A program made the position numbers and the translations under genes. DNA of 63,350 nt, filler included, from Octopus bimaculoides (taxonomy: Eukaryota), in assembly GCF_001194135.2 (NCBI RefSeq). It is 7 parts of 6 records of this genome, joined end to end, with 100 filler letters (N's around TTAATTAATTAA, not from the genome) between each part and the next. Parts side by side here need not be neighbours in the genome. Positions count along the whole stretch, not along the records: positions 1 to 11,102 come from NC_068988.1; positions 11,203 to 24,049 come from NC_069000.1; positions 24,150 to 35,306 come from NC_068983.1; positions 35,407 to 57,044 come from NC_068989.1; 3 more parts are not named here. The stretch is one strand, 5' to 3'. Below, piece by piece: positions 231-45,225 of this stretch. Position 1 is the first letter of the stretch; every line of letters begins with the position of its first letter. Under the pieces are notes generated by a model. The model was given only the letters and a program-made list of their open reading frames with translations, had not been told where the DNA came from and did no database searches.

Positions 231-291
231 GATAACTGAAGAGATGTTGGCGTGGTTTCCCACCGCGGCATCCGAAACTCGGAGTACTATC
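231..291 (+). ncRNA. Hammerhead ribozyme motif, minimal type I
   Basis: GATAA-CTGAAGA-stem II (GATGTTG...CGGCATC with G-U pairs)-C-GAAA-CTC G GAG-TA-CTATC. Predicted cleavage is after GUA (A286). Confidence 0.6.
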
Positions 292-639
292 ATGGCTACC
301 GAATAAGTGTCACATATTTTTACAGATAAATTCCTCTATTTACATAATATCGAAGTCTCTTTCTTTCTTTAGTTATCCTTTATATCAATATATATATATA
401 TATATATAATTTACTAATTTATGTAACGTGATGAGGAAATTGGATGTGATTGAAGAAGCGTCTTTTTATATTTGGGTGATTCGCGCGGAATTAATTCAAG
501 TTTAAATCTCTAATATAAGGGAGGTTAGTTATTTAAGATTTGTGTTCGCATTTATAGATACTGTTGCAATTTAAAAAAAAAGAAATGGAGAAAAAATACG
601 AAGAAAAACTGAGAGAAAATAAGAGAAAATACAAAAAGG

Positions 640-1260
640 ATAATTGCAAATAGTTATACACTTACATATACATACGCATACATATATCCATACTCACGGA
701 CACGTGTATATGTATATATACATAAATAACACATATATATATATATATATATATACACGTAAGTCAATATATATAAATATATATGCATATGCGCATACAC
801 ACAACCATACACATACACAAATACACATACGTACATTTACACATTTACATACACACACTCGTAAATACTTGCACATAAACAGGCATATATACACTCGTAC
901 GTAGACATATACAGACATACACATGCACACACACATATAGATACATATACATGCATATATATACATATATATATATATACATACATATATGCATCTATAT
1001 ATATATACACGTACACCAATAATTACATATTCACCACGCTCATAGACACATGTAGGCATATGTAGGTATATATATATATATATATATATATGTATACATA
1101 TATATGTACACAAGTATATACACAACACACATACAGAATTACACAAATGTGGGCATATGTAGGTGTATGTATATGTACAGAAATATATACTCATACACAT
1201 ACATACATGAACATATACAAACACACACATATGTGGACATAGGTGGGCATAAGTGAAAAC
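640..1260. repeat. Degenerate (TA)/(CA) microsatellite field
   Basis: Alternating purine/pyrimidine low-complexity sequence that generates the spurious YI/HT/CV ORFs. Confidence 0.9.
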
Positions 1261-1899
1261 AATACAAATTATATAAAAAAAAAGGAAAAGAAAATGTGAA
1301 AGAAAGAAGATAAAGAAGAAGGAAGAATAGAAATAGTAAGAAGGGTGACAAGAATAAAGGAAAATAAAAATAGCAAAGATAAAGTTTGGGTTAAAAAGTA
1401 TACACCTAAAAATGTTATTAAAGAATGTATTTTTATATCAATAGAAAAAGATAAAGGATAAACAAACAAATATATTGGCAATAGTTGATTATGATAATAG
1501 TAATAATATAAGTAGTAATATTTATAATAGGTGAGAGATGTGTATTTAAGTACATATAAAACAATACACACAATATATAACAAACAATAAATGTGTATAT
1601 ATATGTGTATATATTTTAAGTGGTGATCAAAAAATTAGTCTAAAAAATGTATTGAGTAAAAGGGAGAGATATATGAATATATGGTATTGGTTTCACAATT
1701 GATGATAAAAATATGAAAGGGTCATATAATATAAGTGGGTGGGGTTGGAATGGCATATGAATAACCAGGTAATGTAAGATGGATAAAATAGAGAGAATTA
1801 AGGATATAACTCTAATATAAAGGTGGTAATATTATAGGGAGACGTATTATGCAAAGAACTAAATTATATGGCGGAGTAAGAATAAGAAAAAAGTTATAA

Positions 1900-3520
1900 A
1901 AACGTTAGAGGAAATGGGGTGGAGAGAATTATTTGAGGTTACGAAAAAGGAATTTTGACATATGTTTACAAGGATGCTTTTTCATCTCTCGAATTTAAAA
2001 GACAATTATCCATTTTCATAATATTGTAACTCACATCTAAGCATAAATAACAAATCCTGTTATTATGCCTATAAGAAGGAGCTGGGAGAAAATTTTCTAA
2101 GAAATCGAGTTTATCAGTGTTACTTCTTTTCAGTTGCCTTTTTAGATAGATTTATACTATTTTCTTTATTGGGTAATTGAAGGATGATTTATGGTCATTT
2201 AATCAGAATTTTAAAGGGTTTTGAGAACATCTAATGTACGTGAATTTAGACAAGTTATGGGTAATAATTGTAGCTTGGTATTCTACAGTTACCCTTTGCC
2301 TCCCTCGTATGTGGGTTTATACAATTACAATCAGAACAATTATTTGATACTCTATTGTTATGTCTATATGTATTAAGGGTGGAGGCGCAATGGCCCAGTG
2401 CTTAGGGCAGCGGGCTCGCGGTCACAGGATCGCGGTTTCGATTCCCAGACAAGGCGTTGTGAGTGATTATTAAGCGAAAAAACCACGAGGCTCCGGCAGG
2501 GGATGGTGGCGGACCCTGCTGTACTCTTTCACCACAACTTTCTCTCACTCTTACTTCCTTTTTTCTGTTGTGCCTGTAATTCAAAGGGTCAGCCTTGTCA
2601 AACTGTGTCACGCTGAATATCCCTCAGAACTACGTTAAGGGTACACGCGTCTGTGGAGTGCTCAGCCACTTACACATTAATTTCACGAGCAGGCTGTTCC
2701 GGTGATTGGATCAACTGGAACCCTCGTCGTCGTAAGCGACGGAGTGCCAACAATGTATTAAGGGTAATTGAGAATGTGTAATTTTGACAATTATTATTAT
2801 TAAAAAAGGAATTATCGGAATTATTAGAGTTAGAAGGAGACCTATTGTAGACTTGGTTTAGTTTCCTATTGTTGAATGAAGAGATGATCCTAAATAGGTT
2901 TAGAGATACTAAAAATCCAAATCTGATCAATTTATTTTAATAAAGTTTCTAATTGATTTAATAAAATTAAATTTTAAATGTTTAGCAAAAGGAATTATTA
3001 TCTAAATGATATTATTGTTGTTATTGTTAGTCGTAGATATTTGAATTTTGTGGGTGTACCATTCGAAAATAAGGTATAGGATTCTTTTTTCTTTCGTATT
3101 ATAACCCCTAACTTTGATTATATTAGTTATGTAATGTGACTTATAAGGAGGATAAGATATAGGTTGGATTTTTCATGTTCTTATTTCTATCGATGGTTAT
3201 TTGTTTTCGGTATTTGTTGTCTGTATACTTAGTTTCAGTTTTCTTATTAATAATAGTGGATTTAGTGATTTGTGGGTAGGGAATATTAATATTAACAGTT
3301 CTAATAGAGAGTTTATTATGGTTATTGTGGTCTAATTTATAGAGTTTATTATTATGATGTTTATTTTTGTTGTAGGATTTTTGTTTTTTTGGTAATGTTT
3401 TAGTGATGAATATTATTGACAGAATTAACTTCTGTGTCAGGGTTTTGTAATTCACTAAATGATGCGGGATTAGTAATACTGTCATTCTTGTTCTTATCTA
3501 GATAATTCTTGGGATATTTG
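1900..3520 (-). mobile_element. Decayed Penelope-like retroelement (post-RT linker plus GIY-YIG endonuclease), interrupted by a SINE
   Basis: Manual minus-strand translation across frameshifts and stops gives ISYPPYKSHYITNIIK, HKIQIS, CNCINPH..GNCR, YIRCSQNPLKF*LNDHKSSF and CYLCLDVSYNIMK..LLNSRDEK. The motif order matches the element at 62161-63249. Confidence 0.65.
2381..2752 (+). mobile_element. tRNA-derived SINE family B, full length with TSD
   Basis: A-box-like TGGCCCAGTGCTTAGG and B-box-like GGTTTCGATTCCC. The 13-bp TSD ATGTATTAAGGGT lies at 2368-2380 and 2753-2765. A homologous copy is at 21140-21498. Confidence 0.92.
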
Positions 3521-3524
3521 TGAT

Positions 3525-3650
3525 ACACACACACACACACACACACACACACACACACACACACACACACACACACACACACACACACACACACACACAC
3601 ACACACATATATATATATATATGTATGTATGTATGTATGTATGTATGTAT
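3525..3650. repeat. (CA)n-(TA)n-(TATG)n compound microsatellite
   Basis: Seen directly. Confidence 0.95.
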
Positions 3651-43789: not shown

Positions 43790-44378
43790 CATGACAATTT
43801 CTGGATCTCTGATGTTATACCATGAGATACATCCACTATTACCTGCCACACTTGCTCCTAAATTGGCGTCCATTTTCGTAAATTCGTCGCTTTAGAATAC
43901 TCCACAAGTTTTTTATTGGGTTTTCGTCGGGGGAACAGGCAGACCACTTCATCTTCCGAGATTAACAGAAGCTTAATTGTTGCACAGACTCTGTAGTTTT
44001 CTTCGCTGAGTGCGAGGGCGTATTATCTTGCATAAATATTATGGTTGTCTTGAAAGTGATTCTTTGCATTGTTAACCAAGGTTCAAGGTGCTCCTTCAAG
44101 AAGGCTATGTAAGCACCTGCAGTCATTTTAACACCGTCAGGGACTTTCCAAAAACCAGTGACAGCAGTTAAAAAGCCTCCTTTAAACAAAATACACATAC
44201 AAAATCGTCTGAAATGGGCAGATAACACGAAGGTCGACTTTTCAAAAGTTTTGTTTACGGACGAAACTTGTGCTACCCTTGATGGACTGATGGCTGGAGC
44301 AAGGGATGGGCTGGTTGTAAATGAAGGAGATCATTATGAATGCTTGAGAGCGGGAGGAGGCATCATGATTTGGGCGTA
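43790..44378. mobile_element. Tc1-type transposase fragment split between strands
   Basis: Plus 44158-44378: KPPLN..RLKWA..FSKVLFTDET.ATLDG..GGGIMIWA. Minus from about 44160 leftwards: WKVPDGVKM..FMQDNTPSHSA..CSPDENPIKNLWSILKRRIY. Confidence 0.88.
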
Positions 44379-44379
44379 G

Positions 44380-44446
44380 CCACTGATGAGAACTTCGCCT
44401 AGCAAATTATTTTATTTGCTAATTAGAGTTCGAGACCTAGGTATGG
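44380..44446 (+). ncRNA. Hammerhead ribozyme motif with extended stem II and a GAAA-to-GAGA change
   Basis: CCA-CTGATGA-GAACT..TAGCAAAT tatttt ATTTGCTA..AGTTC-GAGA-CCTAGG-TA-TGG. Stem III is the palindrome ACCTAGGT. Confidence 0.68.
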
Positions 44447-44763
44447 ATCTAAAAAAACAAGGTAAAAGTTTTTATTTTTCATTCCCTTCGAAATTGCTCT
44501 TAAATGTGTTTTTGGACGTTTTGACTGCTCCTTCTAGCATGTAAGGCTGCCTGTTAAGGGTCGCCTCTCTTGTATTTAAATGTGCACTAATTTTATATAT
44601 ATATATATATATATATANNNNNNNNNNNNNNNNNNNNNNNNNNNNNNNNNNNNNNNNNNNNNNNNNNNNNNNNNNNNNNNNNNNNNNNNNNNNNNNNNNN
44701 NNNNNNNNNNNNNNNNNNNNNNNNNNNNNNNNNNNNNNNNNNNNNNNNNNNNNNNNNNNNNNN

Positions 44764-44950
44764 TATATATATATATATATATATATAACAAGAGGTTCTT
44801 TCACTTTCTATCTATCAAATCCACTCACAAAGCTTTGATCGGCCCGAGACTATAGTAAAAGACACTTGCCCAAGGTGCCACGCAGTGGAACTGAACCCGG
44901 AACCATGTGGCTGAGCAGCAAGCATCTTACCACACAGCCATGTCTGTGCC
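44764..44950 (-). mobile_element. SINE family A, head half
   Basis: Colinear with 3-161. Confidence 0.85.
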
Positions 44951-45171
44951 TATATTTACAAATTCGTTGGAAAACAGCTGTTGCTCTTAATATTTCGAAC
45001 CATTTTAGTACTTTCTGTGCATAAATTGTGTCCGTATGGTAAATTTTGTATATTTTGTGAAAATGTGCCAGTCAGCAGCTCTGGTTGATATATTAAGAGC
45101 ATTACTACTTCACCAATAATAACATGGAATAGCCCAAAGTTGTATTTATAAGACTGCTACATAGACAGTTT

Positions 45172-45225
45172 CTTTGTTCACTGATGAGATTGAATTAGCA
45201 ATCGAAACAAAACACCAAGTCTAGA
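45172..45225 (+). ncRNA. Hammerhead-like relic
   Basis: CTGATGA-GATTG aattag CAATC-GAAAC..GTC. The core and stem II are perfect; stems I and III pair poorly. Confidence 0.35.

Follow-up and report, generated by a model that had tools for sequence, protein, structure and literature searches.

The window analysed here, a composite stretch of 63,350 nt from the genome of Octopus bimaculoides that holds 57,883 non-N bases and is gap-rich, AT-rich and dense in microsatellites, contains four motifs with the architecture of type-I hammerhead ribozymes: a CUGANGA plus GAAA core with an NUH triplet, and three stems, with the two ends joined in stem I. These motifs, H231, H14853, H37696 and H44383 (C3 at 236(+), 14853(-), 37696(+) and 44383(+), respectively; Table 1), had been proposed by a sequence-only reading of the window, and all four are present as it described them, each with its palindromic stem III and an A at residue 17. 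Every one of them is damaged, with weakened stems and, in two, one core substitution (C3U at 14853 and A14G at 44434). We interpret them as real, decayed hammerheads that very probably mark solo pseudo-long terminal repeats (pLTRs), left by Penelope-like elements (PLEs) that were truncated at the 5' end and belonged to at least four families.

The palindrome on which a dimer fold depends is found in each motif, with stem III self-duplexes of -9.7 (231), -8.4 (14853), -6.1 (37696) and -11.4 (44383) kcal/mol, and the corresponding hairpin forms are unstable in all four. The palindromes differ from one motif to another and, therefore, the motif copies cannot partner one another. None has the strict minimal hammerhead form (stem III of two pairs, no loop), their inserts being 6-9 nt long, and a scan of the window for inserts of 2-3 nt gave nothing above chance; the motifs are thus palindromic-helix-III variants, and the earlier label 'minimal' does not apply. 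Nor do their dissimilar stems amount to compensatory variation, as had been argued, since they reflect origin from unrelated families and not change within one.

We compared the window with 300 local dinucleotide shuffles, the type of control that had been called for. The main descriptor (one core mismatch allowed, stem II at least 4/5, palindromic insert of 4-10 nt, stem I at least 3/4) returned four matches, exactly these four motifs, against a mean of 0.15 in shuffled sequence. Requiring a perfect core left two matches (0.007 in shuffles, none reaching two), and an insert of at least 6 nt left four (0.03), whereas a very loose setting gave five matches against 1.13, a count reached by 2 of 150 shuffles. 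At three descriptor settings, none of the 300 shuffles reached four. Thresholds were chosen post hoc, with the motifs already seen, and the contrast with shuffles is somewhat inflated accordingly. A strict first scan recovered none of the motifs, because it demanded unbroken stems. Similarly, Rfam reported no hammerhead among the best 150 of 204 matches of a window scan, nor in two focused scans; it was also blank, at E up to 1, on intact PLE hammerheads of the Hydra clade in five loci (L055, L043, L064, L013 and L018), so its silence on the window is uninformative. Self-BLAST showed no homology between the flanks of the four motifs among the matches listed. Pattern scans for such motifs elsewhere yielded one match in viral contigs, none in another scan and none in metagenomes. 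The viral match (contig L001, 4001-4037(-)) resembles a hammerhead, has the 8-nt palindromic stem III of H44383 together with its A17, and shows no sign of kinship.

Table 1. Hammerhead motifs, associated pLTR features and PLE open reading frame (ORF) relics in the window (RT, reverse transcriptase; Asn, asparagine).
Feature	Coordinates	Strand	Details
H231, type-I hammerhead	231..291	+	core 236-242; stem II 243-273; GAAA 274-277; palindromic stem III 277-285; A17 at 286 (GUA); stem I' 287-291
Fold-back, 5' side of H231	170..236	+	arms 170-191/215-236, 20/22 complementary; ends at C3
Rest of likely pLTR of H231	292..388	+	weak downstream-hairpin relic 333-357, then (TA)n
H14853, type-I hammerhead	14802..14869	-	extended stem I; core 14853-14847 with C3U; extra A before 4-bp stem II; GAAA 14830-14827; stem III 14827-14817; A17 at 14816 (AUA)
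Dispersed-family copy with H14853	14682..14959	-	shared 3' end 14682-14687
Inverted 5' piece of 14853 family	14960..15005	-	16-bp arms 14944-14959/14990-15005
H37696, type-I hammerhead	37693..37733	+	core 37696-37702; damaged stem II 37703-37718 (4/6 pairs); GAAA 37719-37722; 8-nt palindrome 37722-37729; A17 at 37730 (UUA); 3-bp stem I
H44383, type-I hammerhead	44380..44446	+	core 44383-44389; long stem II 44390-44431; GAGA (A14G) 44432-44435; palindrome 44435-44442; A17 at 44443 (GUA); 3-bp stem I
Probable hammerhead remnant	45181..45221	+	perfect core halves; 5-bp stem II; weak stem I; no palindromic stem III
Broken Hydra-clade PLE ORF	62161..63249	+	RT C-terminus, Asn-rich linker, GIY-YIG; 3' end leaves window
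Broken Hydra-clade GIY-YIG relic	1975..2365	-	strand opposite H231; profile iE 3e-12
Short Hydra-clade RT C-terminal relic	10918..11088	-	tblastn E 3e-6
Broken PLE RT plus linker, other clade	27330..28476	-	57% identical to RT/GIY-YIG protein P0152, E 9e-64

The anatomy of a 5'-truncated stub is seen directly for H14853, and probably extends to H231 and H44383. Read data covered a single stretch (14200-15700), that is, one of the four motifs, in four of 24 listed runs at 80% likeness, with 40 of 210 variant rows listed. In X1, summed depth, which is not a copy number, was about 60 in the flanks, rose between about 14682 and 15005 and came to about 12,700 over the core of the hammerhead. At 14687, 35 contigs depart into unlike sequence, which marks a 3' end common to the copies, located 129-134 nt beyond the cleavage site; the upstream ends of the listed contig pieces spread from 14885 to 14959, and 44 contigs run further. 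These 44 carry the 30-nt loop of the window reversed (28/30), indicating that the 14853 copy holds an inverted 5' piece. H14853 is one member of a dispersed family present in many copies, whose 3' end is fixed and whose 5' truncation varies. Its sister copies, from which it is 14-19% diverged, mostly retain C3, both in X1 (100 contigs, 11,315/12,712 depth, or 89%) and in X15, from a second organism (83 contigs, 10,629/11,755), as well as in the RNA reads of two runs (44/46 and 26/33); the U3 of the window copy is, therefore, copy-specific decay. Family-like RNA reads were about 55-65 deep over the hammerhead in these two runs and about equal in both directions; few of the RNA reads (18 of 1598 and 29 of 1357) were at least 99% like the stretch. 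No pile-up of read starts or ends was found for the 14853 family, including the cleavage site, which with two RNA runs is a weak test, and no go-back (circle) joint appeared among 15 of 135 joints listed, a test for circles that short reads, 6% of two runs and a standard RNA-seq library also make weak.

From the tip of the inverted piece, 15004-15370 is the end of a TA-flanked, very high-copy element (X1 summed depth up to about 540,000), which we take to be mariner-like; the inverted piece stops at the TA where this end begins.

H231 keeps a perfect core, with an A.C mismatch at the cleavage-proximal pair of stem I, and is the best window match of a covariance model trained only on metagenomic PLE hammerheads (20.9 bits, E 0.0064). 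By its sequence it is of the Hydra-clade type, and its exact stem III recurs in three of the related loci described below (L018, L068 and L071). By analogy with the 14853 family, the fold-back on its 5' side is likely an inverted, 5'-truncated piece. Strong upstream inverted repeats (score 16) occur at both H231 and H14853, which are two of the six places that contribute the 11 of 971 repeat-free tiles scoring at least 16; none lies upstream of 37696 or 44383. An array of (TA)n, common in the window, starts about 101 nt past the cleavage site of H231 and about 150 nt past that of H44383; insertion into (TA)n was not seen at H37696, and the end of the 14853 family is AT-rich, not (TA)n.

H44383 agrees by sequence with the C15.2-G16.2 type, has a near-identical stem III insert in two related loci (L005 and L019) and is probably of the Hydra clade. 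It starts a few bases after the + piece of a Tc1-type transposase relic (43965-44376, weak matches), whose two parts are in opposite orientations, 43965-44150 (-) and 44170-44376 (+), and the stub thus lies at an inversion breakpoint. Downstream, at 44462-44537, lies a 76-nt GT-AG stretch followed by an ATG, which may be chance; an intron of 75 bp, near this length, has been reported in the 5' untranslated region of Penelope. H37696 again has a perfect core. A tRNA-derived repeat resembling a short interspersed element (SINE), with an 8-bp flanking duplication, occupies 37766-37835, 36 nt past its cleavage site, and a second copy is found nearby at 36917-36989.

Three weaker relics had also been suggested, of which only that at 45181 (+) exceeds chance: its class was observed once in the window and reached by 4 of 200 shuffles, and we consider this remnant probably real. 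Those at 23204(+) and 5105(-) (C3 at 5132) each need two core mismatches and occur at chance level, with 9 such matches against 4.7 in shuffled sequence for the former and 20 against 17.1 for the latter. We also discarded the additional candidates 4631(-), 7603(+), 23862(+) and 25074(+), whose stems are weak or missing.

The window contains four PLE ORF relics. In the longest Hydra-clade relic (62161-63249), the PF01541 match is below the cut-off (E 3e-4), and the linker pattern CxCX5C is present with one cysteine changed. We take the linker of the 27330-28476 relic, from another clade, to be Neptune-like. In the Hydra-clade relics at 62164-62859 and about 2750-3500(-), a long insert rich in Asn separates the RT from the endonuclease; the proteins P0001 and P0004 have it too, and it possibly defines a lineage-specific subfamily. 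PLE searches of viral contigs returned one spurious locus and nothing else, and word-indexed protein searches gave 0, 1 and 1 relatives. In agreement with the earlier reading of no adjacent ORF at most motifs, none has a PLE protein match directly upstream on the same strand, although for motif 231 the window includes only 235 upstream bases.

The GIY-YIG domain at 62866-63246 has 2,859 relatives. Eleven of the longer relatives were aligned, and a search with this alignment yielded 498 metagenomic stretches, from which we kept the best 80, representing 64 sequence families. These loci show DKT (24) or DKS (9) in all 33 readable cases, 73 of the 80 have the linker pattern, and they thus fit the Hydra clade, which is defined by a DKT motif, a CxCX5C linker and GIY-YIG at the C-terminus (10.1101/2021.04.23.441226). 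The perfect-core descriptor found 13 matches in 13 of the 80 loci, compared with 0.33 expected from 30 shuffles. A covariance model was then built from 36 motifs chosen by a relaxed scan; 89% of their stem positions are paired, a count that is circular given how the motifs were picked. The model gave 78 matches in 66 of the 80 loci, 75 of them on the sense strand, and recovered 30 of 44 loci outside the training set. Hammerhead copies are located either 27-157 nt before the ORF (20 of 21, the other at 593) or 37-508 nt past its stop (53 copies); in several loci an upstream and a downstream hammerhead are both present, as direct repeats. All 62 distinct motifs have C15.2 (C15.2-G16.2 type), and residue 17, as parsed, is A in 44, U in 14, C in 2 and G in 2. 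A17 in all four window motifs, previously regarded as a puzzle, is thus the norm in this clade.

Downstream of these hammerheads we found a further structured motif, GCTCY-N3..25-GAGCWC, which follows 35 of the 48 copies with at least 150 nt of downstream sequence, lying within 25-49 nt in 34 of them. It is present twice in 24, over a downstream span of 25-140 nt (L003-L082; e.g. L013, L055, L064), as compared with an overall occurrence of 59 in 1,984 tiles. If the 3' bulge is set at 2 nt, the inner stem is paired in 90 of 105 cells, with several pair types, whereas other bulge sizes pair in 28-38%. For 20 hammerhead copies a 90% identical reference was available, showing an end in 13 and none in seven. 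The mapped insertion ends occupy two ranges, +38 to +54 and +85 to +121, and 9 of the 13 lie 0-5 nt before hairpin copy 1 or 2; because some of the loci are related, these nine do not represent as many independent families. The remaining four consist of two pairs of 3' copies without a continuing reference. The published Hydra-1_Ajap consensus starts two bases before hairpin copy 1, and the octopus Hydra consensus has the 5' half of the hairpin and lacks its usual 3' half (PMC8557442). We did not find this motif in the PLE literature consulted, and the word 'hairpin' occurs 0 times in PMC8557442. We lean, by a small measure, towards the view that PLEs of the Hydra clade, the likely source of H231, carry two copies of a second structured RNA (GCUC...GAGC, covarying inner stem, 2-nt 3' bulge) on the downstream side of the hammerhead, and that each copy positions the RT, with insertions ending 0-5 nt before copy 1 or 2. 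The stem-bulge-stem is a candidate RT-positioning signal.

A plausible route to such stubs starts with the PLE protein nicking AT-rich or (TA)n DNA. Reverse transcription would begin at an internal point of the RNA, some 40-150 nt downstream from the hammerhead, which would therefore be among the first parts copied. Most insertions would halt early, often with an inverted 5' piece, leaving an ORF-less hammerhead stub of 60-330 bp whose 3' end is fixed. Where the parent element has two copies in tandem, these would pair by way of the palindromic stem III and be cut after A17, probably with help from the protein. The lone, mutated copies in the window are probably inert, and no potential partner sharing their palindrome lies close by.

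Several observations weigh against this interpretation. None of the motifs could be linked physically to a PLE ORF, none being adjacent to one within the window. Beyond the core, the flanks of the motifs have no nucleotide homology to the 80 loci (best E 0.018), and copy number was assessed for the 14853 motif only. H14853 and H37696 lack the C15.2 that is universal in the clade motifs; the Hydra-clade model gives H37696 a non-significant 12 bits (E 1.6), and neither H14853 nor H44383 is among its 17 matches on the window. The end of H44383 at +150 falls outside the range mapped in related loci. Finally, the clade hairpin has no exact match in the window, and its weak relics after H231 (top 2.7% of 3,652 tiles) and H44383 (top 1.6%) score below the training range.

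Among other explanations, one or more of the families could be non-autonomous mini-elements or retrozymes of pLTR origin, short units that spread themselves, maybe via circular RNA, using PLE enzymes in trans. The abundance of the 14853 family over about 280 bp and its presence in two RNA runs are in line with this, as is a report that animal retrozymes are pLTR derivatives and often dispersed monomers (10.64898/2026.07.22.740005). However, no tandem repeat holding a motif occurs in the window, and the 14853 family ends well past the cleavage site and not at it, with variable upstream ends. Together with the lack of a go-back joint among the 15 of 135 listed and of an RNA read pile-up, a weak test for small circles, this makes the retrozyme origin unlikely. 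The sequence-only reading had offered solo pLTRs and non-autonomous retrozymes side by side; the pLTR half gains from the hammerheads in 66 of 80 related loci, the four PLE ORF relics and the 14853 family, and the retrozyme half is not borne out in the window or among the joints listed.

It is very improbable that some of the motifs are domesticated host ribozymes cutting intronic or long non-coding transcripts. The cores of H231 and H37696 are perfect, and a contig of organism B extends from the orthologous flank 28-33 letters into the 14853 insertion, a borderline sign of a shared insertion; yet each copy is damaged (C3U, A14G, broken pairs of stems I and II) where selection should repair, and the divergence of the 14853 copy, like the scarcity of RNA reads closely matching it, argues against a conserved function. 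Chance matches in a repeat-rich genome are the least credible source. Post hoc thresholds, the shuffles that matched the loosest setting and the two relics at chance level speak for them, but they are opposed by the shuffle results at stricter settings, by the independently trained model, which ranks H231 first, and by the restored core in sister copies of 14853; for 231 and 14853, chance is already largely refuted.

Hammerheads of this kind have already been published, among them that of a Hydra-clade element from an octopus and one with exactly the stem III of motif 231, and the families described here are uncatalogued. The heterogeneity and solo dispersal of the motifs, earlier presented as surprising, correspond to the published picture of many large, heterogeneous and mostly single hammerhead families per genome, attributed to truncated PLEs and including palindromic-helix-III variants (PMC4209133). 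That work reports dimer cleavage of PLE hammerheads (see also the review PMC6765202), and its rows include U15.2-A16.2 with a longer palindrome in Aedes, A15.2-U16.2 in Crassostrea, and A17 in Hydra, Saccoglossus and D. willistoni; none of our four motifs is built like its strict minimal form without loop 3, and no cephalopod row was found in its Table S1 or Fig. S3. Hydra-clade PLE hammerheads share with ours the type-I fold, a palindromic stem III insert of 7-8 nt, C15.2-G16.2, often A17, a position near the 3' end and (TA)n targets, although the window copies are solo, damaged and ORF-less, and H14853 and H37696 do not have C15.2-G16.2. File S2 of Craig et al. 2021 (PMC8557442) lists Hydra-2_aMil, Hydra-2_aJap and Hydra-1_oBim (O. 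bimaculoides) with hammerheads; the coral element Hydra-2_aMil has the stem III and A17 of H231, which differs from the listed octopus family in its longer stem II and other stem III. Inverted 5' copies are reported to be frequent at PLE insertions, as is (TA)n targeting.

Non-LTR retrozymes (Cervera and De la Pena 2020, PMC7229834; Li et al. 2026 preprint, 10.64898/2026.07.22.740005) are likewise short, non-coding type-I hammerhead repeats related to pLTRs, with monomers occurring, but are defined by tandem hammerhead units and circular RNA, neither of which was seen here. The mechanism invoked above is taken from Poseidon_Ac (PAc) of Anolis (Frangieh et al. 2024, PMC11167929), and would transfer to the window families only by analogy. 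In PAc, reverse transcription starts internally at two positions, 85-92 nt beyond the point of hammerhead cleavage; the ribozyme depends on the protein, insertion does not require the ribozyme, RNA-seq gave no reads ending where the hammerhead cuts, and targets are AT-rich. PAc differs in belonging to another clade, in the overlap of its hammerhead with the ORF start and in having start sites in an AC-rich stem-loop. A repeat annotation of Octopus vulgaris describes 31 recently active Penelope-like families, with ribozymes unmentioned in the portion available, and among the sources consulted no publication on these motifs was found for hammerhead in octopus or cephalopod.

The window also contains other repeats. 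Its commonest short repeat is presumably an octopus SINE. Strong fold-backs, unrelated to the hammerheads, occur at 23944-24040, 21787-21851 and 43663-43702, the first being nearly perfect over 40 bp and adjoining an assembly gap. Relics of other mobile elements at 6478-6840, 24468-25991(-), 32989-33291 and 60330-60662(-) comprise RT fragments, a pair of L1-like ORF1 and endonuclease and, at 6478, a reading frame judged by eye to be Helitron-like, which has no Pfam match.

These results add uncatalogued pLTR families from a repeat-rich invertebrate genome, and show that Rfam overlooks the PLE hammerhead build altogether. They also advise caution, because a hammerhead standing alone in a genome of this type is most likely a remnant of truncated PLE insertion and neither a retrozyme nor a host regulator. 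Of more use is a by-product, the hairpin found in the related loci. If its proposed role is true, it would identify, for a second clade, the cis element that underlies the PLE 'tail', explain the two lengths of solo hammerhead stubs and provide a compact RNA handle for PLE-based insertion, and PLE two-site initiation and the 'tail' would become testable in the Hydra clade by the published in vitro assay.

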